Shown here piece by piece: positions 6,210-46,287 of a stretch of 46,331 nucleotides of DNA. Position 1 is the first letter of the stretch; every line of letters begins with the position of its first letter. Location: the NCBI GenBank assembly GCA_015233355.1, contig JADFXY010000001.1, forward strand, positions 1 through 46,331, written 5' to 3'. The notes beneath the pieces were generated by a model. That model had not been told where the DNA came from. It made no database searches and saw only the letters and a list, made by a program, of their open reading frames with translations. Made by a program: the position numbers and the translations under genes. Source of the stretch: Deltaproteobacteria bacterium (GTDB lineage: Bacteria > Desulfobacterota > JADFXK01).

Positions 6210-6234
6210 CCGAAAAATTTGATATACATCAAAA

Positions 6235-6274
6235 GGGGTGACGGTTGTTGTCCGACTGTCGCCCCTGTTATTTT
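6235..6274 (+). terminator. Rho-independent terminator after the porin gene
   Basis: GGGGTGAC (6235-6242) pairs with GTCGCCCC (6258-6265), including one G-U pair. A T-rich tract TGTTATTTT follows. Confidence 0.6.
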
Positions 6275-6372
6275 CTGCCTGAATGATTGTCCCGGTCGAA
6301 CAGCCGGGTTCGGTCTCAACTTCAGTTTAGGCGTTCCTCGTTCACTGTTATTGACACTTCAAATATATCCCA

Positions 6373-6401
6373 TCGTAACCATTTTGTAACAACCTTATGG
6401 T
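6373..6401 (+). promoter_or_regulatory. Pho-box-like direct repeat plus -10-like TATGGT upstream of alkaline phosphatase copy 1
   Basis: TCGTAAC catt TTGTAAC (6373-6390), then TATGGT at 6396-6401. The same geometry is repeated upstream of copy 2. Confidence 0.45.
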
Positions 6402-6497
6402 AGGTTCCCCTCAGTTGGATCTGAATCGGATAATATCGTGATTACCGATAGCAACGGATCTCTTGCGGTTTGATTAACACTTTTCAGGGAGGTTGTT

Positions 6498-8018
6498 ATG
6501 ATGGCGGGACTTAAAGCGAGGAATTTTTGGAAACTATCTTATTATTTTTTGTGGATTTTGGTCTTATTTGCTTTTTCCGTAGGAATGGCTCAGGCTCAAA
6601 GTCAACCCCAAATCGCGTCTGATCAAAGAAACCCTAAATATGTCTTCCTATTCATTGGTGATGGAATGAGCATGACTCAACGCTATTCCGCCGAAGCCTA
6701 CCTCGGGGCCATTAAAAATCCCTCTAACCCCAATCTAGTTAAGCTGGCCTCCTCCGGATTTCCAGTCTGCGGCATGTGCACGACCTACGATTTAACATCT
6801 ATTTGCCCTGATTCGGCCTCGACCGGAACGGCTATTGCCAGCGGCTATAAGACTACCTCCGGCACCCTGGCCATGGACCCTTCAGGCAAATTCCCTTACA
6901 AAAGCATCGCCACCATGGCTAAAGAAAAGGGCATGAAGGTCGGAATTGTGTCCAGCGTTTCCATTGACCACGCTACTCCGGCGGTGTTCTACGCCAACCA
7001 ACCAACCAGAACTAATTATTATGACATCGCCATCCAACTCGGCAAAAGCGGCTTTGATTTCTTTGGCGGCGGCGGCTTTTTGTCTCCGACCGGGACCAAC
7101 AATGATAAGCCCGATGCCTACGTACAAGCCCAAAAGATGGGGTATAAGCTGGTCAATAACAAAACGGACTTCCTGGCCCTGAAACCCAGCGGGGACAAAA
7201 TCTACGCCTATGAGGCGGTCCTGGACAGCGAAAAGGCCTTGTATTATGAAATAGATCGCAATAGCAACATGATCTCCTTAGCCGATTTCACCAGGAAAGG
7301 AATCGAACTTCTCGATAACTCAAAGGGTTTCTTCATGATGGTGGAAGGTGGCAAAATCGACTGGACGTGCCACGCCAATGACGCCCGGACGTCCATCGAC
7401 GACACCCTGGCCCTGGACAACGCGGTCAAAGAAGCCATCGCTTTTTACGAGCAGCATCCTGATGATACTTTGATCATCATCACGGCCGACCATGAGACCG
7501 GCGGCATGACCCTCGGATGGGCGGGAACGAAATATGGTACATTTTATCAGACTCTGTCCGGCCAGACCATGTCCTATGACGCCTTTAACACGACATACGT
7601 GGCTGCTTACCGCAAGAATGGCTGGAAAGTCACCGACCAGCAGTTGATGGCCGATATAAAAACGGCATTTGGGCTGGATGTGAGCAAACTCGATGGCTGG
7701 CAGGTCAAAATGATCCAGGACGCTTTAGCTGCAAGCAAGAAGATCACATCAGATGTTATTTCCGGTGATCGGCACATGGACGCAGACAGCCGGGGGGACA
7801 ATATCGATCAGACCTACGTCCTTTATGGCGGGTATGAGCCGCTGACCGTCACTCTCACTCATATTTTAAACAACAACGCCGGAATTGGCTGGACCTCCTA
7901 TTCTCATACCGGTGTCCCCGTTCCGGTCTTGGCCAGGGGTTCGCAGTCGGATCAGTTCAGCGGCTTCTATGATGACACCGACATCGCCAAAAAATTGATC
8001 AACATAATGGGCCTGTAA
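6498..8018 (+). CDS. phoA: Alkaline phosphatase (PhoA family), copy 1
   Basis: Signal-anchor or signal peptide ...FSVGMAQAQ. Metal-ligand motif FIGDGMS. Nucleophile motif CPDSASTGTAIASG (D-S-A-x-T). TADHETGGM. RBS GGGAGG upstream. Confidence 0.85.
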   Translation: MMAGLKARNFWKLSYYFLWILVLFAFSVGMAQAQSQPQIASDQRNPKYVFLFIGDGMSMTQRYSAEAYLGAIKNPSNPNLVKLASSGFPVCGMCTTYDLTSICPDSASTGTAIASGYKTTSGTLAMDPSGKFPYKSIATMAKEKGMKVGIVSSVSIDHATPAVFYANQPTRTNYYDIAIQLGKSGFDFFGGGGFLSPTGTNNDKPDAYVQAQKMGYKLVNNKTDFLALKPSGDKIYAYEAVLDSEKALYYEIDRNSNMISLADFTRKGIELLDNSKGFFMMVEGGKIDWTCHANDARTSIDDTLALDNAVKEAIAFYEQHPDDTLIIITADHETGGMTLGWAGTKYGTFYQTLSGQTMSYDAFNTTYVAAYRKNGWKVTDQQLMADIKTAFGLDVSKLDGWQVKMIQDALAASKKITSDVISGDRHMDADSRGDNIDQTYVLYGGYEPLTVTLTHILNNNAGIGWTSYSHTGVPVPVLARGSQSDQFSGFYDDTDIAKKLINIMGL

Positions 8019-8144
8019 GCTATTCCAGTAATCGCCTGGTTTACTTTCATGGGGGCAGGGTTCGGCTGACAAGCCGTCCTTGCCTTTTCTATTTCAGTTT
8101 GAGAGTTCCTTGCTCATTGATGTTGACACTTCTTTTTCGTCTCA

Positions 8145-8173
8145 TTATAACAATTCTGTAACTACATTATGGT
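8145..8173 (+). promoter_or_regulatory. Pho-box-like direct repeat plus -10-like TATGGT upstream of alkaline phosphatase copy 2
   Basis: TTATAAC aatt CTGTAAC (8145-8162), then TATGGT at 8168-8173. This is the paralogous copy of the 6373-6401 element. Confidence 0.45.
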
Positions 8174-8274
8174 AGGGTTCCCGGGTGTCTGGATATGAAA
8201 CTAAAGATATCATAATTACAGATGCTAACAGGATTTTTCAATTTATTCAAAATTATTTTAAGGAGGCTGTTGGG

Positions 8275-9813
8275 ATGCTGGGGCTTAAGACGAAAAATTT
8301 ATGGAAACCGGCCTATTACTTTTTGTGGATTTTGGTTCTGTTTGCCTTTTCGATAGAAATGGCTCAGGCCCAAAATCAAGTCGCAACCGAGCCTGGTCGA
8401 AGAAGTCCCAGATATGTCTTTCTCTTCATCGGCGATGGCATGGGCATGAATCAACGCTATTCCGTCGAGGCCTACCTTGGGGCCATAAAGAATCCCTCCA
8501 ACCCCAATCTAGTCAAGCTGGCCAGCTCCGGCTTTCCGGTTTTCGGTATGTGCACCACCTATGATTTAACGTCCATTTGTCCGGATTCGGCCTCGACCGG
8601 TACGGCTATTGCCAGCGGCTATAAGACGACATCCGGCACCCTGGCCATGGACCCGTCTGGCAAGATTTCATACAAAAGTATCGCCACCATGGCTAAAGAA
8701 AAGGGCATGAAGGTCGGAATCGTGACCAGCGTTTCCATTGATCACGCCACTCCGGCTGTGTTTTACGCCAATCAACCAACAAGAAGTAATTATTATGACA
8801 TCGCCATCCAACTGGGCAAAAGCGGCTTTGATTACTTTGGCGGCGGCGGATTTTTGTCTCCCACCGGGCCGGACAAGGATAAGCCCGATGCCTATGAGGC
8901 GGCCAAAAAAAATGGCTATGTAATCGTAAATAACAAGAAAGATTTTTTAGCTTTAAAACCTACCGGGAATAAGGTGTACGCTTATGAAGCGGCTCTGGAC
9001 AGCCAAAAGGCTCTTTATTATGATATCGACCGCACCAGCGACATGATCTCCCTGGCTGAATTCACCAAAAAAGGAATCGAGTTGTTGGATAATCCGAAAG
9101 GATTTTTTATGATGGTGGAAGGCGGTAAGATTGACTGGACCAATCACGCCAACGACGCCCGGACATCCATCAACGACACCATCGCTCTGGATAACGCCGT
9201 GAGAGAAGCCATCACCTTTTATAATCAACATCAGGACGAGACCCTAATAATCGTCACGGCCGACCACGAAACCGGCGGTATGACCATTGGATGGGCCGGC
9301 ACCAGATACGGCGCCTTCTACCGGACGCTGGGCGGCCAGACCATGTCATATGACGCCTTTAGCACCACCTACGTGGCGGAATACCGCAAGAATGGCTGGA
9401 AAGTCACCGAGCAGCAGTTAATGGCCGACATCAAAAAAGCATTTGGTCTGGATGTAAGCAAACTCGACGCCTGGCAGGTCCAAATGATCCAGGACGCTTT
9501 AGCTGCCGGCAAGAAGACTGAAGCAAAGGCAATTCGTTCTCCAAACAAGGCCAAATTGGCCGCGAGCGATAAAGGCGCGGACAGCCGGAGGGACCCGATT
9601 GATCAAACTTACGTCCTTTACGGCGGATATGAGCCGTTGACCGTAACTCTCACCCATATTCTGAACAACAACGCCGGAATTGGCTGGACCTCCTACTCTC
9701 ACACCGGGCTCCCCGTTCCAGTCTTGGCCAGGGGCGCTCAGTCGGATCAATTCAGCGGCTTTTATGATGACACCGACATCGCCAAAAAGTTGATCCACAT
9801 CATGGGCCTGTAA
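8275..9813 (+). CDS. phoA: Alkaline phosphatase (PhoA family), copy 2 (tandem paralogue)
   Basis: The ORF track starts at GTG 8185. I prefer the ATG at 8275 after AAGGAGG, which aligns with the start of copy 1 (MLGLKTKNLWKPAYYFLWILVLFAF versus MMAGLKARNFWKLSYYFLWILVLFAF). The catalytic motifs match copy 1. There is a short insertion near the C-terminal third (KTEAKAIRSPNKAKLAASDKG). Confidence 0.85.
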   Translation: MLGLKTKNLWKPAYYFLWILVLFAFSIEMAQAQNQVATEPGRRSPRYVFLFIGDGMGMNQRYSVEAYLGAIKNPSNPNLVKLASSGFPVFGMCTTYDLTSICPDSASTGTAIASGYKTTSGTLAMDPSGKISYKSIATMAKEKGMKVGIVTSVSIDHATPAVFYANQPTRSNYYDIAIQLGKSGFDYFGGGGFLSPTGPDKDKPDAYEAAKKNGYVIVNNKKDFLALKPTGNKVYAYEAALDSQKALYYDIDRTSDMISLAEFTKKGIELLDNPKGFFMMVEGGKIDWTNHANDARTSINDTIALDNAVREAITFYNQHQDETLIIVTADHETGGMTIGWAGTRYGAFYRTLGGQTMSYDAFSTTYVAEYRKNGWKVTEQQLMADIKKAFGLDVSKLDAWQVQMIQDALAAGKKTEAKAIRSPNKAKLAASDKGADSRRDPIDQTYVLYGGYEPLTVTLTHILNNNAGIGWTSYSHTGLPVPVLARGAQSDQFSGFYDDTDIAKKLIHIMGL

Positions 9814-9912
9814 ACTATTCCGGCAATCGCTTGTTTTACTAACCTGGGGGCAGGGTCCGGCGTAAAGGCCGTCCTTGCCTCTTCTGTTTTCATTATAACA
9901 GATGGAGAACTG

Positions 9913-11100
9913 ATGCTAATTCTAAATGTAAATCAATTTCTTAAGAATCGCGACGCTGTCCTGGCATTATTCTTAACGGCAATCTGTTTTTTTCTCCTTT
10001 GGGCACCCACCGGGTTTGAGAATAGACAGCCTGCCGGCTCTCAATACGCCAGGGCCCGGATTACCGCTTTAGATAATGCCAGACTCAAACAACACGTCCT
10101 GGTCAAGACGGGGTTCCAGGATCTGACTGTGGAAATACTGGATGGTCCATTCCAGGGCCGGACCGAGCGGGCAGTCAACTATTTGACCGGTAAATTGGAG
10201 ATCGATGAGTTTTATCTGGCCGGCCAGACGATCCTGCTGGAATTCTCGGCCGACCAGGGCCGGATAACCACCTCACATCCGCGGGGCGTTTACCGGCTGG
10301 GGGTGGAGATTTGGCTATTCGGTCTATTCGGCGTGTTGCTGATTGTGTCAGGTGGATGGACTGGATTAAGAGCCCTTTTATCCTTCGTTTTCGCGGCCCT
10401 AATGATCTGGAAGGTGATGGTCCCTTGCTTTTTAAAGGGCTATGATCCGGTGTTGCTTGGATTGGCCGTGGTGACCTGTCTCATTGGAGCCGTCAGCTTT
10501 TTGGTCGGGGGACTAAATCGAACCGGACTGGTCACCTTTCTCGGTTCATTCATCGGACTTAATTTGACCTACCTGTTGTCGAAAATTTTTTATAAGTTGT
10601 TTTGGGTCCACGGAGCTATCCGACCTTTTTCCGAGATGCTCCTCTATACGGGCTTTCCCCACCTCGACCTGGGAAAAATATTCCTTGCCGGGATTTTCAC
10701 AGCGTCATCGGGGGCGATCATGGATGTGGCCATGGATATATCCGTGTCCATGCACGAGTTAAAGCTGAAGAACCCGGATGTTTCTTTGCGAGAACACCTG
10801 GCCTCGGGCATGGCCGTGGGCCGGGCCGTCATCGGGACAATGACCACCACGCTGCTGCTGGCCTATTCCGGCGGATACGTGACCATGTTGATGGTGTTTA
10901 TGGGGCAGGGGATTCCACTCCGAAATATCTTCAACTTGAACCTGGTCTCAGCCGAGGTCCTGGACACGCTGGTGGGAAGTTTTGGAGTCGTCCTGGTGGC
11001 TCCCGTTACCGTTTTGATCGGGGGGCTGATGTTCCGGAGAGGACCCAATGCGGCATTTAATCAGCCTGAAGTGGGACGTAATCAGCCCGAGCTCGATTAG
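9913..11100 (+). CDS. YibE/F-family integral membrane protein
   Basis: One N-terminal TM segment, an extracytoplasmic domain, then about 6 TM segments. The motif SSGAIMDVAMDISVSMHE and the TLLLAYSGGY region recall PF07907 members. This is recognition only, with no search run. Confidence 0.5.
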   Translation: MLILNVNQFLKNRDAVLALFLTAICFFLLWAPTGFENRQPAGSQYARARITALDNARLKQHVLVKTGFQDLTVEILDGPFQGRTERAVNYLTGKLEIDEFYLAGQTILLEFSADQGRITTSHPRGVYRLGVEIWLFGLFGVLLIVSGGWTGLRALLSFVFAALMIWKVMVPCFLKGYDPVLLGLAVVTCLIGAVSFLVGGLNRTGLVTFLGSFIGLNLTYLLSKIFYKLFWVHGAIRPFSEMLLYTGFPHLDLGKIFLAGIFTASSGAIMDVAMDISVSMHELKLKNPDVSLREHLASGMAVGRAVIGTMTTTLLLAYSGGYVTMLMVFMGQGIPLRNIFNLNLVSAEVLDTLVGSFGVVLVAPVTVLIGGLMFRRGPNAAFNQPEVGRNQPELD

Positions 11101-35610: not shown

Positions 35611-35760
35611 CGACCAGTTTTTTAATTAACTACCAAAAAAATGAATCCGCAGATTTCTCAGATCAACGCAGATGGAAATGACCCACCGACCTGTAACGGT
35701 CCGAATATGCGCTAACCAGTGCAATCTATCGGATTGAATCATGGCCCTTTATGATAAATG
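35611..35760. repeat. MITE/REP-like intergenic repeat, copy B
   Basis: CGACCAGTTTTTTAATTAACTACCAAAAAAATGAATCCGCAGATTTCTCAGATCAACGCAGAT...ATTGAATCATGGC. It is collinear with copy A across about 140 bp. The right arm is more degenerate. Confidence 0.7.
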
Positions 35761-35805: not shown

Positions 35806-35823
35806 TCGTCACTGTGCTGTAAC
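35806..35823 (+). promoter_or_regulatory. Pho-box-like direct repeat upstream of the CheY-like/arsC-like/phoB gene group (TCGTCAC tgtg CTGTAAC)
   Basis: Same 7+4+7 architecture as at 242-259, and nearly the same sequence (GTCAC-N6-GTAACAAT). It lies about 200 nt upstream of the ATG at 36029. Confidence 0.4.
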
Positions 35824-36028: not shown

Positions 36029-36409
36029 ATGGCCAAAGTATTAGTCGTGGATGATGAACAATACATCCGGGAAATGTATCTTGACGAGTTGACCGAAGAT
36101 GGACACGCCGTGGCGACTCTCGCCTCAGGATTGCACTTGAAAGAATCCTTAGACAGTCTGCAACCTGACGTGATGGTCTTGGACATTATGCTGGGTGGTG
36201 ATAATGGGCTTAATTTACTTCAGGAAATTCGTTCCGATAACTATAAGCTCCCGGTCATTCTGTGCAGCGCCAATGATTCCGGCAAATCAGATCCGCGGTC
36301 CCTGGCTGCGGAATATTATGTCATGAAATCATTTGATCTCTCAGAGCTGAAGAAAAGGGTCAACCAGGCTACCGATGGGATCAATTGCCGCCCCATCAGC
36401 CGGAACTGA
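36029..36409 (+). CDS. Single-domain (CheY-like) response regulator
   Basis: [13 protein letters not shown]...[14 protein letters not shown]...VILCSAN...YVMKSFD. There is no output domain. Confidence 0.8.
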
Positions 36410-36450
36410 AACATCGATCTCTTCCACCACCCGACGCGGAGGACTTCATT

Positions 36451-36906
36451 TTGGAGGTGATTGTGACCGGAAAATCCGCGGTTCTTTTTGTTTGTGTCCA
36501 TAATAGCGCCCGGAGCCAGATGGCGGAGGCTTTCTTGCATCACCTGGCCGGTGATCGTTTTGAAGCATCCAGCGCCGGTTTTGAACCAACCTGTATAAAT
36601 CCTTTAGTTATAGAGGTAATGCGGGAAGAAGGATTTGATCTGTCGGATCATCAAACCAAGAGTGTGTTTGAATTGTATAAGCAAGGAAAATTATATCGAT
36701 ATATCATAACCGTGTGCGATGAATCAACCGGCCAAAGATGTCCCGTTTTCCCTGGAATAGCCAAAAGACTGCATTGGAGCTTTGACGATCCGGCGTCATT
36801 CACCGGCAGTCATGAAGAAAAGTTGGCCTTAACCAGAAAAGTTCGGGACGAAATCATGGCCACAATTCAAGACTGGCTAAGTGGACCGGCTCCGGCCGCG
36901 GATTAA
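36451..36906 (+). CDS. Low-molecular-weight phosphatase family protein, ArsC-like (thioredoxin-type arsenate reductase) or LMW-PTP
   Basis: P-loop [18 protein letters not shown] (C-x5-R-S) and a downstream cysteine pair in [16 protein letters not shown]. The ORF track starts at 36385. I prefer TTG 36451 or GTG 36457/36463 after GGAGG. Confidence 0.7.
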
Positions 36907-36934
36907 GCGGCACTAAAAAAGGAAGAGAAAGCAA

Positions 36935-37630
36935 ATGTCCCAGGTGAACATATTAGTGGTGGAAGATGAGCAGGATATTCTCGACCTGGTGGAATACAAT
37001 CTTCAGCAAGAGGGCTTCCATGTCCTGCGGGCGATGGATGGACTGGCCGGAATTCAACTGGCCAAAAAAGAACGTCCTGATCTGGTCATCCTCGACCTCA
37101 TGCTGCCCAAGATGGATGGCAAGGAGGTTTGCCGCTCTATCCGCCAGGATGGCGAGACCAGTACCATGCCGATCATGATGCTGACGGCCAGGGCTGAAGA
37201 GATTGACCGGGTCATTGGGTTTGAACTGGGCGCGGACGATTACTTGACCAAGCCGTTCAGCCCCCGGGAACTGGTCCTTCGGGTCAGGGCCGTGCTCAGG
37301 CGGTTAAAAGATAAGGTGACATCTAATTCACTTATCCGATTTCCAGGCATCCTGATTGATCCGGAGAAGCATCGGGTCGAAATCGATGAACAGGATGTCC
37401 GATTGACCGCCACCGAGTTCAGATTGTTGCAATGTCTGGCGGCCAATTCAGGCAATGTCTTGACCAGGGAGGATTTGCTCGACCAGGTCTGGGGTTATGT
37501 TTATGATGGTTACGCCCGGACGGTCGATACCCATATCCGACGGCTCCGGAAGAAAATGGGTAATCAACAAGAACGGATCGATACTATTCGAGGTGTGGGA
37601 TATCGATTTCGGTCCGACCAGTTACAGTGA
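36935..37630 (+). CDS. phoB: OmpR-family winged-helix response regulator, PhoB-like
   Basis: Collinear by eye with E. coli PhoB (ILVVEDE..., DLVILDLMLP, MLTARAEEIDRVIGFELGADDYLTKPFSPRELVLRVRAVLRR, TATEFRLL, RTVDTHIRRLRKK, IRGVGYRF). No histidine kinase gene is adjacent. Confidence 0.75.
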   Translation: MSQVNILVVEDEQDILDLVEYNLQQEGFHVLRAMDGLAGIQLAKKERPDLVILDLMLPKMDGKEVCRSIRQDGETSTMPIMMLTARAEEIDRVIGFELGADDYLTKPFSPRELVLRVRAVLRRLKDKVTSNSLIRFPGILIDPEKHRVEIDEQDVRLTATEFRLLQCLAANSGNVLTREDLLDQVWGYVYDGYARTVDTHIRRLRKKMGNQQERIDTIRGVGYRFRSDQLQ

Positions 37631-37818
37631 GAGCGGTTGTCGGGTAATCGTCACCGAGTCTGCGTCGAAGTCCGCCCAAACCCGGTCAAATGTATCTAAC
37701 GGCCATGCCTGAGTCATTAATTCGTGACCGGACTAGACTCAGGCCGGCTTGCCCGGCGGGCGTTTGTTTTGTGCTATGCCCTTTTTAATATTCATTGATG
37801 CAATTTTCAGGAGGAACC

Positions 37819-38364
37819 ATGGGATCCCGTGAAATAAAGATAGAAAAAGTATTGAGCGTAGAAGAACTCTCCGGCTTTTTCAACCAGGTGATTGAAGGTC
37901 TGGAAGCGGCTAATTCGCTCAATGAACTGGGAGTTGATTTGCATGATTTCAGTAAAGTGTCTATCAGTCTCAAACGCCGTCAAGGTCAGGTGATGATGAA
38001 GTTAAAGGTAGAGCATGATCGGACTGCTTCGGGAGAGGAGGAAGACCTTATTGAAACAGATCATCCGGACCAGATCGCCACAAAATACAAAACCCTCAAG
38101 AAATCAATGAAAACCGGGATGAAGGTGATGGCCCAGTTCTTGAGCAATAATGAATTGCCGCCGAGGCTGGTGGTCCAGTCCTTCTTGAGCCAGGCCAATC
38201 AGATGATCACCTTTCCGGGCAAAGGGGACGAACATTATCTGGAGTTCGGTAAAGAATGTGATGACCTTAAGGTGGCATTCGACCAGGGCGACGTCAACTT
38301 AATGAGAATCAAGTGCGATGCACTGAACAGCCTCAAAAAGCAATGTCATGCCCAATTCAAGTAA
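37819..38364 (+). CDS. Amphi-Trp-like N-terminal domain protein with a C-terminal domain ending in a ...KQCH motif (candidate 'XXXCH-domain' protein)
   Basis: ATG at 37819 after AGGAGG. The N-terminus IKIEKVLSVEELSGFFNQVIEGLEAA...VMMKLKVEH parallels the three small paralogues downstream, with His where they have Trp. The C-terminus is ...ALNSLKKQCHAQFK. Confidence 0.5.
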   Translation: MGSREIKIEKVLSVEELSGFFNQVIEGLEAANSLNELGVDLHDFSKVSISLKRRQGQVMMKLKVEHDRTASGEEEDLIETDHPDQIATKYKTLKKSMKTGMKVMAQFLSNNELPPRLVVQSFLSQANQMITFPGKGDEHYLEFGKECDDLKVAFDQGDVNLMRIKCDALNSLKKQCHAQFK

Positions 38365-38396
38365 CCTCTGTCTTTGGTGGGTAAACAAGAAAATAA

Positions 38397-39554
38397 ATGG
38401 ATAACATTGATATTGAAACGGATACAGGCTGCGACCTCCTGGAAGACCTCCCGGACGAAGTGTCTGAAGCTGACGAACGGAATTTTCTAGGGCTTATTTC
38501 CACGGAACTCACTCCGAAGCAACGGGAAGAAATAGTCATTCCCCCGGTAGTTTTTCCGGAGCAGCAAAATGTTCTGGCGGTCCACTGGCATCCCGAGCAT
38601 GTCCCCTTAGACCTGATCGCCCGACGGATTGATGCGACCTTTCCCAATAAAACTGACGAGCTGATCATTCCGACCCAACATAATGTTTTGATGCGATATA
38701 ATGAGTGGTTCGGCGTGGAGGTCGATTGTTATTCGACCGGATTTAATCAAAAGGTCCAACTCCTGCTGCATTTCCACCACAGCAAGGAAGAAAAGGCCGG
38801 TGTCTTGAAATCCATGCTGACTTACACCTTCAAGTACCGGTCGCAGCAATTGTTTGATTATATCGAGACCATCGTTAAACCCCACCGGGACAGGCTGGAG
38901 CAGGCGGCCCGGATTACCGGGACAGATGAAAAGGTTATTGATCTGGTCATTAATTATGTCAAGCACCTGGTCCAGTTGTTGGAGCGGCATCGGGCGGCGG
39001 TATCGCCGGAGATGCTCAAAAATAAGTTATTACGGGATTTTTTCGACACCCTGCGGCCCCAATATGGACACGGGACGATTAATCGGGCCCAGGCTTTTTT
39101 GCGGGCGGTGAAGGAAATCGTCAAGGCTGATTTTCCCTTGCAGTATTTCTTTAGGACCTCTGAAATCATAGAGGAGGCCCGGTGTCTCGGATGCGGTATC
39201 TTGGTGCCCCATCCGGAGCAATTTTGGCCGATCTTGTTGGCGGAATATGATCTGGACGGTTATGAGGTCTGGAATCCTCAATCCCGAAAGTATACTGAAT
39301 TCTTGATTTCAGTGGTAGATCGAAGCAATCGCCGACAGGGCCCATCAAGGAGAAAGATGCTCCTGTTCATGGGTGACGACACCCACCTGGGCGAGAAGCT
39401 AAAGGATCCATCAGCTCAGTATCCGGATAAGGCCTGCCGGGAGATCGGCGTTCATCCCGCCTGGGATGATCTTAGTATCCGGAAAAAGATGATTTCGGCC
39501 GCGATGGATCGGCGGCAAGTCATTATTGAGTACCGCGACCGGCTGCTGGGGTAA
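38397..39554 (+). CDS. Hypothetical protein with PHP-domain-like motif series (TrpH/YciV-like phosphoesterase architecture)
   Basis: Ordered motifs: AVHWHPEH (HxH), IIPTQHN (xxH), FGVEVD (GxE), LLLHFHH, then a ~130-aa helical insert, then LVPHPEQF (HP), LDGYEVWN (xE.xN) and FMGDDTHLG (GDDxH). There is an acidic N-terminal extension. Motif-level recognition only. Confidence 0.4.
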   Translation: MDNIDIETDTGCDLLEDLPDEVSEADERNFLGLISTELTPKQREEIVIPPVVFPEQQNVLAVHWHPEHVPLDLIARRIDATFPNKTDELIIPTQHNVLMRYNEWFGVEVDCYSTGFNQKVQLLLHFHHSKEEKAGVLKSMLTYTFKYRSQQLFDYIETIVKPHRDRLEQAARITGTDEKVIDLVINYVKHLVQLLERHRAAVSPEMLKNKLLRDFFDTLRPQYGHGTINRAQAFLRAVKEIVKADFPLQYFFRTSEIIEEARCLGCGILVPHPEQFWPILLAEYDLDGYEVWNPQSRKYTEFLISVVDRSNRRQGPSRRKMLLFMGDDTHLGEKLKDPSAQYPDKACREIGVHPAWDDLSIRKKMISAAMDRRQVIIEYRDRLLG

Positions 39555-39668
39555 CCCGCCGGGGTGCCGATTAAGGGCGAGAGAGGCAGAATCCCTTGGA
39601 CCCTCAGGGTTAGAGGCCCGGTTCCGGGCCAATTCCATTCATGACTTTCATTCTCGGAGGCGACCAAC

Positions 39669-39941
39669 ATGTCCCAAAATGAAAAATTCGAATACGAATC
39701 CATTCAAGATAACGCCAGCGTTAGAAATTTTATCCAGTCTTTGCTTGATGGGATAGAGCAAGGCCGCATTATCCTGCAATCAAACGAGGATGAGATTATC
39801 ATGCATCCAAATAATTTACTCAAGCTTTCGGTCAAGGCCCGGAAAAAAGACGATCAAGGCCGGCTGAACATTAAGGTCTCGTGGAAAGAATCTAAATCTT
39901 CCGTCATCACCACACCGAACTCACTCAGGGTAACCGCGTAG
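39669..39941 (+). CDS. Small amphi-Trp domain protein (90 aa)
   Basis: KFEYESIQDNASVRNFIQSLLDGIEQGRIILQSNEDEIIMHPNNLLKLSVKARKKDDQGRLNIKVSWKE. This pattern is shared with 43929 and 44214. GGAGG RBS. Confidence 0.6.
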   Translation: MSQNEKFEYESIQDNASVRNFIQSLLDGIEQGRIILQSNEDEIIMHPNNLLKLSVKARKKDDQGRLNIKVSWKESKSSVITTPNSLRVTA

Positions 39942-39944
39942 GCC

Positions 39945-41594
39945 ATGCTAAATTTTGAAGGAATAGAAGAAAATCTTAAGTTTATCGTGCTGGAGACGCA
40001 GACTCAGGTCAGCGCCACTCGCGACTTGCTCCGGAATCGGAGTCAGATAGAATATGAAAGAATCGTCTCTCGCGACGATTACATCGATAATCTGAAAAAT
40101 CTTATCGAAAGCAGTTGCTTCACCAGGCTGGCCTCCGACCGGTTACTGGGCAAGGAAGAAATCAATGAAATAAGGGCAGTCCAAATAATTTGTATTAACC
40201 TGGAACGGATTGCCGATTACTCGGTTAATATCAGCCGGCAGATGGGCTACATGGATGAAGCTGAGTTTATTCATGAATTTGACTTCGAAAGTGTATTCCC
40301 AAAGATATCGGAAGGTATTTCCAGTATCTACACCGTGTTAAAGGATCGGAATCTGGCCGGGGCCTTAACCATCTGCCGGGTCGAATACGCCCTCGATGAA
40401 TGGTATAAGGTTAGTTTCGACGCCATCATGGATCGGCTAAGAGGCGGGCAAAACATCCAAAATTTGATTACCGTGCTCTTTATCTTTCGGTACTTGGAGC
40501 GGATTGGCGATGCCCTGCTCAACATCGGTGAGGCCTTGATTCTGGCCATCATCGGCGAAAAGATCAAGATTCACCAGTTCCAGGCTCTCCAGGAAACACT
40601 GTCCCGGTCGGGATTTGAGGGCAACCTGGAAGAACTCGATGTCCATTCAATTCTGGGCAGTAGGTCCGGCTGCATCATCAACCGGCTGGAGCAGCGGCGG
40701 TCCAATTGGTCCCAGGCACAAGAGAGTATCTTCAAGGAAGGCAACCTGCAAAAAATCCGCCGTGAAAAAGCCAACTTGGAACTGTGGGCGGAAAAGTATC
40801 CCGGTCTGACTCCCAAAATTTTAGGCTATTATGAGGAAGGCGACAAGGGCGCGCTGCTGGTCCAGTTTTTGGCCGGGTGCACCTTAGATGAAGTCATCCT
40901 GAATGCCGCGGAGGAACCGCTTCGGAATGCTTTCTTTATCCTGAAGCAAATACTCGAAGAAGTGTGGCGGCAGACCCGGCAGGACGGTCCTATGGCCACC
41001 GACTATCTCAACCAGATCCGGGCCAGACTGCCTCAGATTCACCGAGTCCATGAAAATTTTTCGCGGCCGGCCAAATATCTGGGCGTGACCAAGGTCGCCT
41101 CATCCGAAGAGCTTTTGTCTGCTTGCTCAGAAATTGAGAGCCGGCTTCCCGCACCCTTTGCCGTGTTGATTCATGGTGATTTCAACGTCAACAATGTCGT
41201 TTACAACCATGAACTGCAACGGGTCCACTTCATTGACCTGTACCGGTCCAGGTATGCCGATTACGTGCAAGATGTCTCGGTCTTTCTCATCTCGAATTTC
41301 AGGATCCCGGTTTTTGATGAAGAACTGAGATCCAGGTTAAACTGGATCATCGAAAAATTCTATGAGTTCTCCAGCCAATTGGCCTTGAGTTGGCAAGACC
41401 GGACGTTCAACGCCCGGCTGGCCCTGGCCCTGTCCAGATCCTTTTATACCTCCACCAGATTTGAATTAAACAAGGAATTCGCCCGAGAGATGTATTTGCG
41501 GGCTCATTTCTTAATGGAAAAAGTGGCCGGATATGGCGCGGCCGGCGGGTCCTGGACGGATTTTGTCTTTCCATTGTCTGTATTATATTATTAA
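39945..41594 (+). CDS. PhoU-domain / aminoglycoside-phosphotransferase-type kinase fusion protein
   Basis: The N-terminal ~210 aa hold two PhoU repeats (DDYIDNLKNLIE...NLERIADYSVNISRQ; LDEWYKVSFDAIMDRL...YLERIGDALLNIGEA). The C-terminal ~260 aa have the APH/choline-kinase catalytic loop LIHGDFNVNNVVY and VHFIDLYRS. The start is 4 nt after the preceding stop. Confidence 0.7.
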   Translation: MLNFEGIEENLKFIVLETQTQVSATRDLLRNRSQIEYERIVSRDDYIDNLKNLIESSCFTRLASDRLLGKEEINEIRAVQIICINLERIADYSVNISRQMGYMDEAEFIHEFDFESVFPKISEGISSIYTVLKDRNLAGALTICRVEYALDEWYKVSFDAIMDRLRGGQNIQNLITVLFIFRYLERIGDALLNIGEALILAIIGEKIKIHQFQALQETLSRSGFEGNLEELDVHSILGSRSGCIINRLEQRRSNWSQAQESIFKEGNLQKIRREKANLELWAEKYPGLTPKILGYYEEGDKGALLVQFLAGCTLDEVILNAAEEPLRNAFFILKQILEEVWRQTRQDGPMATDYLNQIRARLPQIHRVHENFSRPAKYLGVTKVASSEELLSACSEIESRLPAPFAVLIHGDFNVNNVVYNHELQRVHFIDLYRSRYADYVQDVSVFLISNFRIPVFDEELRSRLNWIIEKFYEFSSQLALSWQDRTFNARLALALSRSFYTSTRFELNKEFAREMYLRAHFLMEKVAGYGAAGGSWTDFVFPLSVLYY

Positions 41595-41629
41595 GTATAA
41601 CCTGACTTCGGCAAGTCTTATTGATTGGG

Positions 41630-41817
41630 AAACTGAAATGTATCCGCAGATTTCGCAGATGAACGCAGATGAAAGCGACCCACAGGCCATGCGATCATTT
41701 GCTTGACTTTGGCCGGCCGTGGCTTGAATACAAGCCTTCGGACACAAACGTTTTGTTTTTTTAATCTGCGCGAATCGGCGCAATCTGCGGATTGAATCAT
41801 GGCGTTGAAGTTGATAC
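41630..41817. repeat. MITE/REP-like intergenic repeat, copy C (long-core variant)
   Basis: Left arm CCGCAGATTTCGCAGATGAACGCAGAT (41644-41670). Right arm ATCTGCGCGAATCGGCGCAATCTGCGG (41764-41790), whose reverse complement CCGCAGATTGCGCCGATTCGCGCAGAT matches the left arm. Conserved tail ATTGAATCATGGC. Confidence 0.75.
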
Positions 41818-41870
41818 GCCACCTGCGGGAGAGCTGAGCCTTTTGCAGTAACCTGGTAAAGGAGTTAAGT

Positions 41871-42806
41871 GTGACCAGAATTGGTGTGGTTGGAATCAAA
41901 GGAAGCTGGTCTTCGGAAAAGTTGGCCGACGCGGTAGCTGAGATGACCGGCTTTAGGCTATTGATCGGCATGGATGAAGTAAGTTTGGACTTTGAATCGG
42001 GGCGGGCGTTTTTCCAGGGATGTGATTTGACCGAACTCGATGCTTTGATAATCAAGAAGATCGGCCTCACCTACTCGCCCAGCCTGCTGGACCGGTTGGA
42101 AGTCTTGCGTTATCTCAATAGCCGCGGCCTGCCCATGTTCTCCAAACCGGGCAACATCATTGGCGTCTTGAACCGGCTGTCTTGCACCGTCACCTTGCAA
42201 TCGGCCGGTATCCCCATGCCGCCGACTACTATCACCGAAGACGTTACCGAGGCCTTGAAGGCCGTCTCCGAGTATGGAGAAGCCGTTTTTAAACCTCTTT
42301 ACACGTCAAAGGCCCGCGGTATGGTGGTCATTAAGTCCGGTTATGGGACGAAGGAGGCCATCGAATCCTACCGGAGCGAATATTCCTCCATGTATATCCA
42401 AAAGAAGATAGATATCCCAGGTAAGGACCTGGGGGTGGTGTTTTTGGGCGGCGAATACCTGACCACCTATGCCCGATGCCGGGTCCCCGGTTCATGGACC
42501 ACGACTACTTTTTTCGGAGGCCAATATGAACCGTATGATCCGCCGCCGGCCATTATTGACTTAGCCGGCCGGGCCCAAAGTTGCTTTGGCCTGGACTTTA
42601 CCTGTGTTGACGTGGCCGAGACCGGTGCCGGACCGGTTGTCTTTGAAGTATCGGCTTTTGGAGGATTTCGGGGCTTGGAAAAGGCCCAGGGCATTGACGC
42701 CGCCGAGAAGTACGTCACCTATGTTTTAGCGAGGCTCGCATCATGGAAGAAAATCCCATCTCAGCCCTTGACCTCATTAGCCGGTTGCGGACAACGTACC
42801 CGGTAA
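41871..42806 (+). CDS. RimK-like ATP-grasp ligase
   Basis: GTG start after AAAGGAG. ATP-grasp pattern: AVFKPLYTSKARGMVVIK, MYIQKKIDIPGKDLGVVFLGGEYL, FTCVDVAETGAGPVVFEVSAFGGFRGL. Confidence 0.7.
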   Translation: MTRIGVVGIKGSWSSEKLADAVAEMTGFRLLIGMDEVSLDFESGRAFFQGCDLTELDALIIKKIGLTYSPSLLDRLEVLRYLNSRGLPMFSKPGNIIGVLNRLSCTVTLQSAGIPMPPTTITEDVTEALKAVSEYGEAVFKPLYTSKARGMVVIKSGYGTKEAIESYRSEYSSMYIQKKIDIPGKDLGVVFLGGEYLTTYARCRVPGSWTTTTFFGGQYEPYDPPPAIIDLAGRAQSCFGLDFTCVDVAETGAGPVVFEVSAFGGFRGLEKAQGIDAAEKYVTYVLARLASWKKIPSQPLTSLAGCGQRTR

Positions 42807-43828
42807 CCACCGGCCTCAACCTGGTTTTTGGACAGGTGAGAATAGCCTTAAAGACAAATCAGCCGACCCTGGTGGATGTATTAGAGGAGTATTTCGGGTC
42901 GTTCGTCTCCACGGAAGGTCCCGCCGACATCACCATTACCGCCCATGAAGCTCCAATTCAGACCTTTCCGTTCTCCTTCACTCAGAAGACGCCGGACCCC
43001 GGTAAGACGAAGGTAAAGGAAGAATATGTGGAACTCGATGATGGGCGGATCGTCCGCAAACGACTGACCGGTCTCTGTTTCGTCTTTAACAGCCGGGAAC
43101 ACCTGGCTATCGGGCCTTGCCTGAGTAATGCCAATCAAATCGTTAATTTTATCAATAATCGTTATATCCAGTGGAAGCTTCACCGGGGCTGCTTGCTGGG
43201 CCATGCCGCGGGAGTCTTGTATCATGGCCGCGGGCTGGCCTTGGCCGGGTTTTCCGGAATGGGCAAATCTACCCTGGCCCTGCACCTGGTCAGCCGAGGG
43301 ACATCTTTTGTCAGTAACGACCGGTTGCTCATCTCTCCCAGCGGCTCCGGCCTGGAGATGAACGGCGTGGCCAAACTCCCCCGGATCAACCCTGGGACCG
43401 TTTTGAACAATCCTATGCTCTCCTCCGTGATTCCGGAAGAGGAGAAAGCGGCGTTTAAGTCTCTCCCTAAGGAAGAGCTATGGGATCTTGAACACAAATA
43501 TGATGTGCCGATCGGTGGAATTTTTGGCCCGTCGCGATTCGCCTTGTCGGCGCCGATGGTGGGTTTGGTCATTTTGAACTGGGACCGGACCGAAGCCCCG
43601 GTGACGGCACAGGAGGTTGATCTGGATCAGCGACGGGATTTGCTGGCCGCCTTCATTAAGTCAGAGGGGTTGTTTTACTTGCCGCTCAACGACGAGTCCG
43701 AACACGACCGTTCGGCCGCGGCCTACATAACCTTTTTGTCTCGATGCCGGGTCTGGGAGATTCGGGGGGGCACGGATTTTTATGCCGCTGCGAATATTTG
43801 TTTCCGGTTCCTTGAGACTCAGGGATAA
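42743..43828 (+). CDS. HprK/P-related P-loop kinase
   Basis: GRGLALAGFSGMGKSTLALHLVSRGTSFVSNDRLLI resembles the HPr kinase/phosphorylase P-loop region (G.SG.GKSE.AL.L...GH.LV.DD). It overlaps the ATP-grasp gene by 64 nt. Confidence 0.6.
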   Translation: MEENPISALDLISRLRTTYPVTTGLNLVFGQVRIALKTNQPTLVDVLEEYFGSFVSTEGPADITITAHEAPIQTFPFSFTQKTPDPGKTKVKEEYVELDDGRIVRKRLTGLCFVFNSREHLAIGPCLSNANQIVNFINNRYIQWKLHRGCLLGHAAGVLYHGRGLALAGFSGMGKSTLALHLVSRGTSFVSNDRLLISPSGSGLEMNGVAKLPRINPGTVLNNPMLSSVIPEEEKAAFKSLPKEELWDLEHKYDVPIGGIFGPSRFALSAPMVGLVILNWDRTEAPVTAQEVDLDQRRDLLAAFIKSEGLFYLPLNDESEHDRSAAAYITFLSRCRVWEIRGGTDFYAAANICFRFLETQG

Positions 43829-43895
43829 CAACTCCCAGCCCAACCGGTCTGGAGGAAACTGTCATAGGCGATGCTTGATAAAAAACAGGTCACAG

Positions 43896-44445
43896 CGTTA
43901 AATAACCCCAGGTAGAAAGGTAGAGACGATGGACAAGCCGAAGATAGAATTAAAGAATACTATAGGCCGAAATGAAGTGATCACCTATTTAGAAGGACTC
44001 GTCGAAGGCTTCAAGGCCGGAAAGATCGTGTTGGAGCAAGGCGACCTGATCCTTGAGATGACTGTTCCCGAAGTGGTCCAGGTTGAAGTGGAAGCCGGAC
44101 AAAAGAAGGATAAGGCCAAGTTTGCGCTGGAACTAACCTGGGACCAAGTCACTGATTCCAAATAATTTGACCCCTTGCCTCGTTAAATAACCCCGGGTAG
44201 AAAGGTAGAGTCGATGGATAAGCCGAAGATAGAATTAAAGAATACTATGGGCCGAAATGAAGTGATCACCTATTTAGAAGGACTCGTCGAAGGCTTCAAG
44301 GCCGGGAAGATCGTGTTGGAGCAAGGATACCAAATCCTCGAGATGACTGTTCCCGAAGTGGTCCAGGTGGAAGTGGAAGCTAAACAAAAGAAGGATAAGG
44401 CCAAGTTTGCGCTGGAACTAACCTGGTATCAAATTGCTGATCCAG
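43896..44445 (+). repeat. Tandem duplication (285-bp offset) covering RBS and most of two amphi-Trp genes
   Basis: 43896-44160 and 44181-44445 are near-identical (CGTTAAATAACCCC[A/G]GGTAGAAAGGTAGAG[A/T]CGATGGA[C/T]AAGCCGAAGATAGAATTAAAGAATACTAT...). They diverge only after ...LELTW. Confidence 0.85.
43929..44165 (+). CDS. Small amphi-Trp domain protein (78 aa)
   Basis: MDKPKIELKNTIGRNEVITYLEGLVEGFKAGKIVLEQGDLILEMTVPEVVQVEVEAGQKKDKAKFALELTWDQ. RBS GAAAGG. Confidence 0.6.
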   Translation: MDKPKIELKNTIGRNEVITYLEGLVEGFKAGKIVLEQGDLILEMTVPEVVQVEVEAGQKKDKAKFALELTWDQVTDSK

Positions 44446-44684
44446 ATGAATGTGACTCCGTCAAGATCTCGGGCCAAAACCCGGAGAAGGCGGTTTTAGC
44501 CGCAGGATTTGAGGAAGTCGGCGACAAAGAGCCAACGTTGGACAATAATGAGCATAGGTTGTGTATCGATGCCAAGGAAGAGTGCCTCCTTACCATTACG
44601 GTGAAGGAAGAAACCGAACTGGAGTCCGCTGAAAAGGAGTCTGACCGCTTGCTCCGAATCGGCGAAGAGCAATACACATCTTAA
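44214..44684 (+). CDS. Amphi-Trp domain protein with acidic C-terminal extension (156 aa)
   Basis: The first ~72 aa are almost identical to 43929-44165. A ~80-aa Glu/Asp-rich tail follows, ending EEQYTS. Confidence 0.6.
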   Translation: MDKPKIELKNTMGRNEVITYLEGLVEGFKAGKIVLEQGYQILEMTVPEVVQVEVEAKQKKDKAKFALELTWYQIADPDECDSVKISGQNPEKAVLAAGFEEVGDKEPTLDNNEHRLCIDAKEECLLTITVKEETELESAEKESDRLLRIGEEQYTS

Positions 44685-44800
44685 GAAAAAGATTTTGGAT
44701 CCGGCATGAACAAATTCCCGCGGGCAGGGACGCCTGCGCCACCAGAAAAACAGATTCTTTTTTACAAACCTATAACTTATAAATGCTGTTGGAGCATGAC

Positions 44801-46159
44801 ATGATCGATCCGGTGATTTTTAGAAAATACGACATCCGGGCCGTAGTGGATAAAGAACTCGACGATACCGGGGTAATCAACCTGGGTCGGGCCATGGGGA
44901 CATATTTCCAAACCAGGGGTATGGATAGGATCACCTTAGGCCGCGATGGCCGGTTGAGCTCTGACAGGTATGCCGCCTTGTTCTCGGAAGGTTTGATCAG
45001 CACGGGGCTGTCTGTGGCCGACCTCGGACTGGTCACCACCCCGATGCTCTATTTTTCTGTTTATGCTCTGAAGCATCCGGGCGGCGTGATGATCACCGCC
45101 AGTCACAATCCCGCTCAGTACAATGGGTTTAAGATCTGTGTCGGGCCTCATGCCATGACGGAAGCTGAGATTCAAGCCATCCGGGCCCTGGCTCAACGGG
45201 GTGACTTTTACAAAGGAAAAGGGACCATCGAACAATTTGACGTGGCCCCCTTCTATCTGGAATACCTCCTGAAACATATTGATATTCCGCGGCCGGTGGC
45301 CATCGGGGTTGATACGGGGAACGGCTCAGTCGGTCCCATCGCCAAGGCCGTCTATGAGGGTCTGGGATTAAAGGCCATCCACATCTATGCCGATGTGGAT
45401 GGCCGGTTCCCCAATCACCAGCCGGATCCCACCGTGCCGAAGAATATGGTGGATCTCGGGGCCCTGGTCAAGGAGCATGGCCTGGAGGTAGGTCTGGGTT
45501 TTGACGGGGACGGGGATCGCGTTGGGGTGGTGGACGAGGCCGGCCGCCTTATCTATGGGGACAGGTTACTCCTGATCTTTGCCCGAGAGATTCTGGCCCG
45601 CCGGCCTGGGGCTGCCATCGTGGGTGATGTCAAGTGTTCTGATAATCTTTTCCGCGAGATAGAACAACGCGGCGGCCGGGCTAGAATGTGGAAGACTGGA
45701 CACGCCCTAATCAAGCATAAGATGGAAGAAGAAAGAGCCGCCCTGGGCGGGGAGATGAGCGGGCATATTATTTTTGCCGACAGATATTTTGGTTTTGATG
45801 ATGGGATATATGCCGCACTTCGGCTGGTGGAGATCCTGGCCCGAGACAGTCGTCCCTTATCCGAATACCTGGCTGACGTGCCGGAAGGATATATTACCCC
45901 GGAGATACAGATTAGTTGCCCGGACAAACTCAAATCGGCCGTGGTCGCGGAGGTGCGGGATGCCCTGCGCCGGGATTATCAGATTAATGATATTGATGGG
46001 GTCAGGGTCGGCTTTGAACACGGGTGGGGTCTATTGCGGGCGTCCCAGACCATGCCCAAGGTGGTCATGCGCTTCGAGGCGGATACGGAGGAAGAACTCA
46101 ATCGGATCAGATCGATATTCGAGTCCCAGGTCACCCAAGCCCTCCAGGCCAACATATAG
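44801..46159 (+). CDS. Phosphomannomutase / phosphoglucomutase (alpha-D-phosphohexomutase family)
   Basis: Active-site serine loop ITASHNPAQYNGFK. Mg-binding loop GFDGDGDR. Sugar-binding loop GGEMSGH. N-terminal IFRKYDIRA. The start is 44783 or 44801. Confidence 0.9.
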   Translation: MIDPVIFRKYDIRAVVDKELDDTGVINLGRAMGTYFQTRGMDRITLGRDGRLSSDRYAALFSEGLISTGLSVADLGLVTTPMLYFSVYALKHPGGVMITASHNPAQYNGFKICVGPHAMTEAEIQAIRALAQRGDFYKGKGTIEQFDVAPFYLEYLLKHIDIPRPVAIGVDTGNGSVGPIAKAVYEGLGLKAIHIYADVDGRFPNHQPDPTVPKNMVDLGALVKEHGLEVGLGFDGDGDRVGVVDEAGRLIYGDRLLLIFAREILARRPGAAIVGDVKCSDNLFREIEQRGGRARMWKTGHALIKHKMEEERAALGGEMSGHIIFADRYFGFDDGIYAALRLVEILARDSRPLSEYLADVPEGYITPEIQISCPDKLKSAVVAEVRDALRRDYQINDIDGVRVGFEHGWGLLRASQTMPKVVMRFEADTEEELNRIRSIFESQVTQALQANI

Positions 46160-46268
46160 CCCCTACCTCAATGTCATTGACTTAAGGTGCAAGGTCATCG
46201 GATTCTATTCTAATAAATGGTTAATTCCGATGAAGCCCTGAAAGGGCGCTCTAGGTTAGCCCAGGGCA

Positions 46269-46287
46269 ACGCCCTGGGTAGGGGTGG
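46269..46287. other. GC-rich hairpin downstream of the phosphohexomutase gene
   Basis: CCCAGGGC aac GCCCTGGG. No U-tract follows, so it is not a canonical terminator. It may be a REP-type element. Confidence 0.3.

Follow-up and report, generated by a model that had tools for sequence, protein, structure and literature searches.

The question raised by the locus studied here is whether eight consecutive genes directly downstream of phoB form a rebuilt system of their own or an ordinary copy of a known one, and what these genes have to do with phosphate. The locus lies on contig JADFXY010000001.1 of a metagenome-assembled Deltaproteobacteria bacterium (assembly GCA_015233355.1, Desulfobacterota), of which the whole stretch from position 1 to 46,331 was analysed (46,331 nt, the window). 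The genes resemble the GAK system, an operon thus far without an assigned function, which is defined computationally in NCBIfam by five families: amphi-Trp (TIGR04354), HprK-related kinase B (TIGR04355), GAK ATP-grasp (TIGR04356), CofD-like (TIGR04357) and XXXCH (TIGR04358). A first description made from the letters alone (the sequence-only reading) had presented the locus as a remodelled GAK cassette, in which a PhoU-kinase fusion and a phosphoesterase had come to stand in the place of CofD. The analysis reported here identifies it securely as a GAK operon without CofD, a near-canonical copy of a widespread operon.

The eight open reading frames (ORFs) of the cassette, all on the + strand, were verified at the coordinates given below. 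Four of the five GAK families score above their NCBIfam cutoffs at the locus, on one strand and in the usual order, the CofD-like TIGR04357 being the exception; the families named in the sequence-only reading (XXXCH, three amphi-Trp proteins, GAK ATP-grasp and HprK-related kinase B) are all confirmed. ORF1 (37819-38364), which starts with an ATG at 37819 preceded by GGAGG, scores 87 bits against the XXXCH hidden Markov model (HMM; TIGR04358, cutoff 40). Its N-terminal half is a divergent amphi-Trp domain, as judged by hhalign against the two classes of amphi-Trp protein defined below (93.6% for class A and 94.7% for class B, E-values of 6e-8 to 2e-7), and its C-terminal XXXCH domain finishes in LKKQCHAQFK, which carries the conserved ending CH-x-x-[YF]-K; both features had been read correctly from the letters. 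Three ORFs match the amphi-Trp model TIGR04354 (also PF20068) with 62-69 bits, against a cutoff of 31: ORF3 (39669-39941; 90 aa, class A, 62 bits), ORF7 (43929-44165; 78 aa, conforming to the class B consensus, copy 1, 62.9 bits) and ORF8 (44214-44684; 156 aa, class B copy 2, 69.2 bits), the last with an acidic C-terminal tail. ORF5 (41871-42806), which has a GTG start, is the GAK ATP-grasp ligase (TIGR04356, 436.7 bits, cutoff 300), and ORF6 (42743-43828), the gene of which overlaps that of ORF5 by 64 nt, is the P-loop HprK-related kinase B (TIGR04355, 511.6 bits, cutoff 200), referred to below as HprK-B. The other two ORFs encode a putative PHP-fold phosphoesterase (ORF2, 38397-39554) and a fusion of two PhoU repeats to an APH/EcKL-type kinase domain (ORF4, 39945-41594, the PhoU-kinase), the latter starting after a gap of 3 nt downstream of the ORF3 stop codon. 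A role in anti-phage defence was considered and rejected, as PADLOC models match none of the eight cassette proteins.

An alignment of HprK-B was scanned against one genome per species, and at least 370 relatives were confirmed. The loci analysed are the best-scoring 80 of these, and 57 of them have adequate flanks; most come from metagenome-assembled genomes (MAGs), and gene starts in the compared loci are approximate. The 80 loci belong mainly to Desulfobacterota, and the remainder to Nitrospinota, Nitrospirota, Zixibacteria, Eisenbacteria, Spirochaetia, SAR324, Planctomycetales, Ignavibacteriales and Acidobacteriota. Cultured carriers of the cassette include Desulfonema magnum, Desulfamplus magnetovallimortis, strain NaphS2 and a Maridesulfovibrio isolate. 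Orthologues of the cassette genes are syntenic across these roughly ten phyla, in a nearly constant order that can be written [XXXCH]-ORF2-amphi-Trp (class A)-PhoU-kinase-ATP-grasp-HprK-B-CofD-[amphi-Trp class B]. Among the 57 well-flanked loci, the PhoU-kinase and amphi-Trp genes are each present in 55, the ATP-grasp gene in 53, the ORF2 family in 51, the CofD-like gene in 50 and the XXXCH gene in 34.

These counts leave no room for the notion of a remodelled locus. The PhoU-kinase and the PHP-fold enzyme were rejected as substitutes for CofD, as both co-occur with it in nearly all loci; they adjoin CofD in nearly all of the 50 CofD-bearing ones. For instance, homologues of ORF2 in Desulfonema magnum, in a Zixibacteria MAG and in a 3.4-Mb genome are found together with amphi-Trp, PhoU-kinase, ATP-grasp, HprK-B and CofD-like genes, and the CofD-like gene of these loci belongs to TIGR04357 (about 555 bits). 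Because both families accompany CofD in a fixed order, they are not replacements: the PhoU-kinase and the ORF2 family are previously unrecognised core members of the GAK system. The definition of the system omits both, although they are as conserved as the families that it names. Since both fall short of every NCBIfam cutoff, ORF2 without a match of any kind, the five-family definition under-describes the operon.

The lack of a CofD-like ORF, in contrast, had been rightly observed. Neither an ORF nor a remnant was found in the whole window (best E-values of 0.29 with hmmsearch and 0.67 with tblastn), and this missing member is the only departure of the locus from the usual gene content, the class B gene being tandemly duplicated. 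CofD is missing in seven of the 57 well-flanked loci (12%), the other genes of which are intact. Since these loci are scattered over unrelated lineages, and since the nearest HprK-B relatives of the window locus all carry CofD, the missing gene is to be ascribed to recurrent loss or relocation. Two sister-MAG contigs (L084 and L085) are uninformative on CofD, as both end just past the PhoU-kinase gene, at an intergenic repeat described below.

Over 1,600 homologues make up the ORF2 family, and their identity stays near 60% from one phylum to another. The NCBIfam and Pfam searches that support the GAK, PhoU and APH assignments returned nothing for ORF2, the PHP family PF02811 included; with E-values up to 10 allowed, 40 family members still matched nothing in Pfam, NCBIfam or the PDB sequences. 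An exhaustive search yielded only 105 clusters at 50% identity and no bridge to other families. The AlphaFold model (pLDDT 87, pTM 0.84) features seven strands, interrupted by an insert of helices that is about 135 residues long, and its sole significant Foldseek matches are PHP phosphoesterases, namely BAD_1165 (3o0f/3e0f) and the V. cholerae RNase AM (9etk), with E-values of 7e-6 to 1e-4. The invariant residues of the family (H63-W-H65-P-E, TQH95N, E108-x-D110, H125, PH272PE, E290-V-W-N and GDD328-T-H330) are located at strand ends in the model. H63-x-H65 follows the first strand and D328-x-H330 the last, as do the N-terminal HxH and C-terminal DxH motifs typical of PHP enzymes. The predicted seven-strand barrel is thereby similar to that of TrpH/YciV-type PHP enzymes; in contrast, sequence similarity to these enzymes is not detectable, and TM-scores range from 0.38 to 0.52 because of the helical insert. 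Fold and motif placement thus support ORF2 as a PHP-like, putative metal-dependent phosphoesterase, and the PHP-like label given to it earlier holds for the predicted fold and the motifs but not for sequence profiles. Domain fusions were considered as a clue to function and set aside, as the N-terminal extensions of ORF2 homologues consist of low-complexity sequence. The called N-terminus of one homologue (P0060, 417 aa) opens with the class A amphi-Trp motif ERFEYDSIQD, probably through a frameshift or an error of gene calling and not through a real fusion.

In ORF4, the two PhoU repeats (PF01895, 75.5 bits, cutoff 23.5) are followed by a C-terminal half that matches both APH (PF01636, 37.4 bits, cutoff 23.2) and EcKL (PF02958, 41 bits, cutoff 22), and the fusion proposed from the letters alone is borne out by these scores. 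The E-x-x-x-D motifs of the PhoU repeats, the HGD-x-N-x-x-N motif and a downstream Asp are conserved in at least 95% of 74 homologues. Two PhoU repeats with E-x-x-x-D are also found in the PhoU protein of the PstSCAB-PhoU-PhoR complex, and a genuine phoU/pst operon is present in the window and often adjacent elsewhere. ORF4 differs from PhoU in that it falls below the equivalog cutoff (TIGR02135, 70.1 bits, cutoff 130.25) and has its repeats fused to a kinase domain; it is a PhoU-domain protein and not PhoU. Nor is it an aminoglycoside phosphotransferase (38 bits, cutoff 205). We know of no description of an architecture that combines PhoU repeats with an APH/EcKL kinase.

The nearest solved relatives of the ATP-grasp ligase are LysX, ArgX and RimK (E-values of 3e-16 to 2e-12). 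Outside its own family, all NCBIfam matches are below cutoff, i.e., MptN (139 bits of 350), RimK_fam (95.6 of 143.4) and LysX (82 of 275.6), which places ORF5 in a separate family of the RimK/LysX/MptN clade; its core motifs are conserved in at least 95% of 77 homologues. In the LysX/ArgX-LysW and RimK-S6 systems, a small protein receives an amino acid on a carboxylate of its flexible C-terminus. The GAK locus differs from them, as the amphi-Trp tails have no invariant C-terminal Glu, and lysine and arginine pathway genes are absent.

The P-loop of HprK-B matches HprK/P structures, the alignment being confined to the P-loop region, and its G-x-SG-x-GKST and SNDR motifs are conserved in at least 95% of 81 homologues. 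HprK-B is not an HPr kinase/phosphorylase (TIGR00679, 28.3 bits, cutoff 240), and no genes for HPr or the phosphotransferase system (PTS) were seen in the window. The two systems share the GxSGxGKS Walker A motif, a later acidic motif (SNDR in ORF6, ADD in HprK/P) and neighbouring small proteins of about 80-90 aa; in contrast, amphi-Trp proteins do not have the HPr fold, PTS genes are lacking and nothing beyond the P-loop aligns. HprK/P acts on the 88-aa HPr, and its activity depends intrinsically on inorganic phosphate and pyrophosphate, which fits a phosphate-linked operon. HprK-B homologues also match weakly the Pfam family ScmC, the literature on which gave nothing relevant. With catalytic signatures that are conserved in at least 95% of 74-81 homologues and intact in the window, the PhoU-kinase, the ATP-grasp ligase and HprK-B all look active.

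Amphi-Trp proteins, of which each cassette encodes two to four paralogues, can be divided by position into class A (about 90 aa), which precedes the PhoU-kinase, and class B, which follows CofD or HprK-B. Single-sequence searches retrieve three homologues, and profile searches 39. Class A proteins conform to the consensus F-x-x-E-S-x-Q-D ... SWK; five of the eight most conserved columns (F7, E10, S11, Q13 and D14) are in an N-terminal coil, and the others are G28, a Lys and W72. About half of the class A C-termini end in I-x-S/T. In the predicted structure of class A (pLDDT 85), a helix is packed on a four-stranded sheet and the tail past W72 is disordered; this model has no significant counterpart among solved structures (best E = 0.5). 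The strands of amphi-Trp proteins are Lys-rich and amphipathic. Class B tails are variable, 7-147 aa long and rich in A, K, E and P. Some of them, as in L042, L076 and L045, are long and of low complexity, e.g., PAKKAAPKKPAAK, and resemble histone-like or polyanion-binding tails. In the window, the two class B genes derive from a recent tandem duplication (43896-44459, + strand), the two 279-nt copies of which, 285 nt apart, are 91% identical. The genes of class A and the PhoU-kinase are separated by a median of 6 nt in 70 loci, and those of ATP-grasp and HprK-B overlap by a median of 4 nt in 76 loci; both pairs are translationally coupled across loci. An amphi-Trp protein is one of the 20 most abundant proteins of Dissulfuribacter thermophilus (PMC13490349), which is the sole experimental trace of the system.

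Phosphate enters the picture through the neighbourhood of the cassette. PhoB boxes of the form YGTNAC-N5-YGTNAC, or near variants of it, are located in the window at 99-115 (- strand), 243-259, 6374-6390, 8147-8162 and 35807-35823, at the promoters of pstS, alkP1, alkP2 and the operon that contains phoB, and the direct repeats at these promoters have a periodicity of 11 bp. The half-site is identical to the experimentally derived (c/t)GT(n)AC half-site of D. vulgaris PhoB (PMC3333781). Of 50 cassette promoters, 9 carry the published half-site, chosen a priori, at an 11-bp periodicity; among 410 other promoters at the cassette loci, the figure is 3 (odds ratio 30, Fisher p = 1.8e-7). Control spacings of 10 and 12 bp show no enrichment. 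We also tried the published box with a 4-bp spacer, which is equivalent to a 10-bp period, and rejected it, as only the 11-bp period is enriched. The pattern derived from the window itself is found in 9 of 50 cassette promoters versus 8 of 410 others. Since only one of six foreign pstS promoters carries the pattern, its sensitivity is low and the true fraction of boxed cassettes is probably higher.

Synteny points the same way. At six loci (L005, L007, L025, L045, L058 and L079), as in the window, the cassette lies no more than about 850 nt downstream of phoU, phoB or pstA and is co-directional with them, and in L003, L032 and L048 it is divergent from pst/phoB genes (about 3 kb off in L048). 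A Pho-type neighbour or a strict box was found in 23 of the 80 loci (29%). Comparative evidence thus gives good support to an association of the GAK system with the Pho (PhoB) regulon across genomes, and the tie to phosphate suggested by the sequence-only reading is upheld by both synteny and box enrichment. That reading had gone too far in regarding the window as almost entirely Pho-regulon: classic Pho genes, namely pstSCAB-phoU, a pair of alkaline phosphatases and an OlsF-like acyltransferase, take up about 13 kb of it, and the remainder is made up of sulfatase/maturase genes, Pqi/MlaD and a signalling block of sensor kinases and response regulators. The alkaline phosphatase genes (6210-9915) are tandem paralogues, the duplication of which spans both the promoter, where box and -10/-35 region are shared, and a GC-rich hairpin at the 3' end. 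An ORF of 416 aa between phoU and the first of them (4959-6209, + strand) has no Pfam match and is possibly a further Pho-associated gene. The D. alaskensis G20 genes Dde_3773-3780, for which a phosphate-dependent fitness and a 'PhoU-like regulator' are on record, were considered as a possible cassette and rejected, as Dde_3777 is CobT.

How the window cassette is transcribed can be partly read from its upstream region. The preceding operon on the + strand (36029-37630) encodes a receiver-only response regulator (36029-36409; Pfam Response_reg), a low-molecular-weight (LMW) phosphatase/ArsC-like protein (36385-36906; LMWPc) and PhoB (36935-37630; PhoB HMM), a gene order that is also present in the sister MAG contig L084. 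Its promoter contains the box CGTCAC-N5-TGTAAC (35807-35823, + strand), which has the third-best position weight matrix (PWM) score in the window. That phoB lies directly upstream, with a weak terminator before the cassette, had been noted before, and both were located here, the terminator-like hairpin at 37747-37771 (+ strand; 6-bp stem, four G-C pairs, T-rich tail). In the scanned region such hairpins are no commoner than in shuffled sequences. A site closer to the cassette, GTCAT-N6-GTGAC (37713-37728, + strand), has one perfect half-site (CGTGAC) and one imperfect one. It is not claimed as a PhoB box of the cassette, as the pattern had been shaped after the site was seen, and with a PWM built from the remaining boxes it comes about 894th among 92,620 positions. 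Most plausibly, the window cassette is transcribed from the boxed promoter at 35807, reading through the weak hairpin.

What the operon does can be addressed at lower confidence. We favour, with a probability of roughly 45%, the interpretation that the GAK operon encodes a reversible modification cycle on amphi-Trp proteins that is gated by phosphate status. The amphi-Trp proteins, with their novel fold of a helix and four strands and their flexible conserved termini, would serve the cycle as substrates or carriers, their covalent modification being reversible. They would be phosphorylated by the HprK-like kinase, the PhoU-fused kinase or both; the LysX/RimK-like ligase would attach an amino acid to a carboxylate, and in cassettes with CofD a phospho-linked group would be added by the CofD-like enzyme. 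Phosphate would be taken off by the PHP enzyme. The PhoU repeats may gate the fused kinase by phosphate status, and the output of the cycle would be a phosphate-dependent signal or adaptation. ATP-grasp relatives such as LysX, ArgX and RimK modify small proteins. We infer that amphi-Trp proteins are the substrates from these protein-modifying relatives, from the HprK/P-HPr precedent and from the paralogues, conserved N-terminal coil, disordered tail, gene coupling and abundance in Dissulfuribacter thermophilus described above. The scheme first put forward, modification or signalling centred on amphi-Trp proteins with a PhoU-mediated coupling to phosphate, is plausible but unproven.

Several points weigh against this interpretation. 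A convincing PhoB box is lacking at the window cassette itself, transcription that reads through from the phoB operon is an assumption, and Pho linkage is detectable in only 29% of the loci. The 80-locus set is skewed to Desulfobacterota MAGs, and the component HMMs and their score thresholds were custom-built and ad hoc. The C-terminal residue of class A proteins is variable (Ser in 44%), unlike that of carriers such as LysW, and the conserved S11-x-x-D14 could be a helix-capping box. APH-type kinases, PHP enzymes and CofD relatives are usually small-molecule enzymes, and the best non-GAK profile match of the ATP-grasp ligase is the cofactor ligase MptN. A literature search found no publication on the GAK system. 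More doubtful, as a tentative extension, is a hitherto unrecognised PhoB-controlled pathway of post-translational modification and signalling that reports phosphate status by HPr/HprK-like logic on small proteins of a novel fold. Its marks would be written by the PhoU-gated kinase, the HprK-like kinase/phosphorylase and an ATP-grasp ligase directed at proteins, and erased by a PHP phosphoesterase of the sequence-orphan ORF2 family.

The same enzymes could instead serve a small-molecule pathway, in which a phosphorylated, glutamylated metabolite or cofactor-like compound would be built or recycled under phosphate stress. The APH-type kinase would then act on a hydroxyl, the CofD-like enzyme would carry out a phospho-linked transfer, an MptN/CofF-like ATP-grasp would add glutamate and the PHP enzyme would trim phosphate, with amphi-Trp proteins in the part of carrier, chaperone or regulator and not of end substrate. 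Small molecules or nucleotides are the typical targets of both APH/EcKL kinases and PHP phosphoesterases, and ORF2 matches in structure RNase AM and a protein of the nucleotide phosphoesterase type. Outside its own family, the ATP-grasp ligase scores higher with MptN than with RimK_fam or LysX, and the CofD-like protein that usually accompanies it is in the CofD/YvcK superfamily. However, scaffold-biosynthesis genes do not recur in the cassette, no partner is more constant than the two to four small paralogues (55 of 57 loci), whose translation is coupled to that of an enzyme, and CofD is dispensable in 12% of loci, the remaining genes being intact. We regard this explanation as unlikely, and as the main rival of a modification cycle on amphi-Trp proteins.

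Much less probable is a role in RNA- or ribosome-directed phosphorus salvage or translation control, with the PHP enzyme working as a pAp phosphatase or, like RNase AM, as a 5'-3' exoribonuclease, the RimK-like ligase as a modifier of a ribosomal or RNA-binding protein, and amphi-Trp proteins binding RNA. The V. cholerae RNase AM is one of the three significant structural matches of ORF2, yet the latter has the 135-residue helical insert and no sequence similarity to TrpH/YciV. Similarly, RimK is among the nearest solved relatives of the ATP-grasp ligase, but the RimK score is far under its cutoff, and the Lys-rich strands of amphi-Trp proteins are not accompanied by a significant likeness to Sm/Hfq folds (E about 6, TM-scores of 0.23-0.40). 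A PIN-PhoH ATPase is encoded near the cassette in nine loci. Least probable of all is the handling of a polyanion such as polyphosphate, which abundant amphi-Trp proteins would coat or buffer with their basic sheet face and A/K/E/P-rich tails while the kinases and the phosphoesterase set their loading, as Lys-rich amphipathic strands, low-complexity class B tails, the high cellular abundance of one amphi-Trp protein and the Pho-regulon linkage would suggest, but ppk, ppx and CHAD genes do not recur near cassettes, the body of class A proteins has a net charge of no more than about +1, class B tails are acidic on average, and the ATP-grasp ligase would be left without a role.

Other features of the locus and its surroundings are as follows. 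The gap between the PhoU-kinase and ATP-grasp genes measures 276 nt in the window, compared with a median of 24 nt elsewhere, because a dispersed palindromic repeat is inserted there (41630-41800, inverted arms at 41642-41674 and 41760-41792). The repeat has three intergenic copies in the window (3905-4010, 35640-35750 and 41630-41800), which share the core ATCCGCAGATTTC[GT]CAGAT[GC]AACGCAGAT and its inverted partner. The RNA fold predicted for the cassette copy has an energy of -62 kcal/mol (z -4.4). A hidden component or regulatory RNA was considered for this gap and rejected, as the sequence is a dispersed repeat with two other copies and no Rfam match. The repeat probably breaks assemblies, since contigs L084 and L085 end where it would lie.

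Some flanking genes recur as well. A protein of about 830 aa with an N-terminal PHP-like motif (DLHVHS...ISDHN) and a GT4 glycosyltransferase domain is encoded in 14 loci, about 3 kb downstream of HprK-B (e.g., L059:5898-8378), and an ABC ATPase is encoded near the cassette in ten loci, one more than the PIN-PhoH ATPase. The LMW phosphatase/ArsC-like gene and the gene of a YibE/F membrane protein (window 9913-11100) are each found near GAK cassettes in five loci, including the window and also L011 and L027. A phosphomannomutase/phosphoglucomutase gene flanks the cassette both in the window (44783-46159) and in a CofD-less Nitrospinota locus (L082:4033-5430), two cases that are possibly a coincidence. 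Just downstream of this gene in the window, the Rfam small RNA Acido-Lenti-1 has a match on the - strand (46234-46278; 44.7 bits, gathering score 37).

The operon, with its active-looking kinases, ligase and phosphoesterase, is present in at least 370 species-level genomes of about ten phyla, mainly of sediment and subsurface anaerobes, and its definition is extended here by two core families, a sequence-orphan PHP-fold enzyme and a PhoU-kinase fusion. Phosphate limitation is the condition that suggests itself for its study. Bacterial phosphate sensing is understood almost wholly through PstSCAB-PhoU-PhoR/PhoB. Should the operon make a small molecule, a new metabolite of phosphate stress would be the result; if amphi-Trp proteins are modified, the operon would represent a new regulatory layer of the phosphate response.

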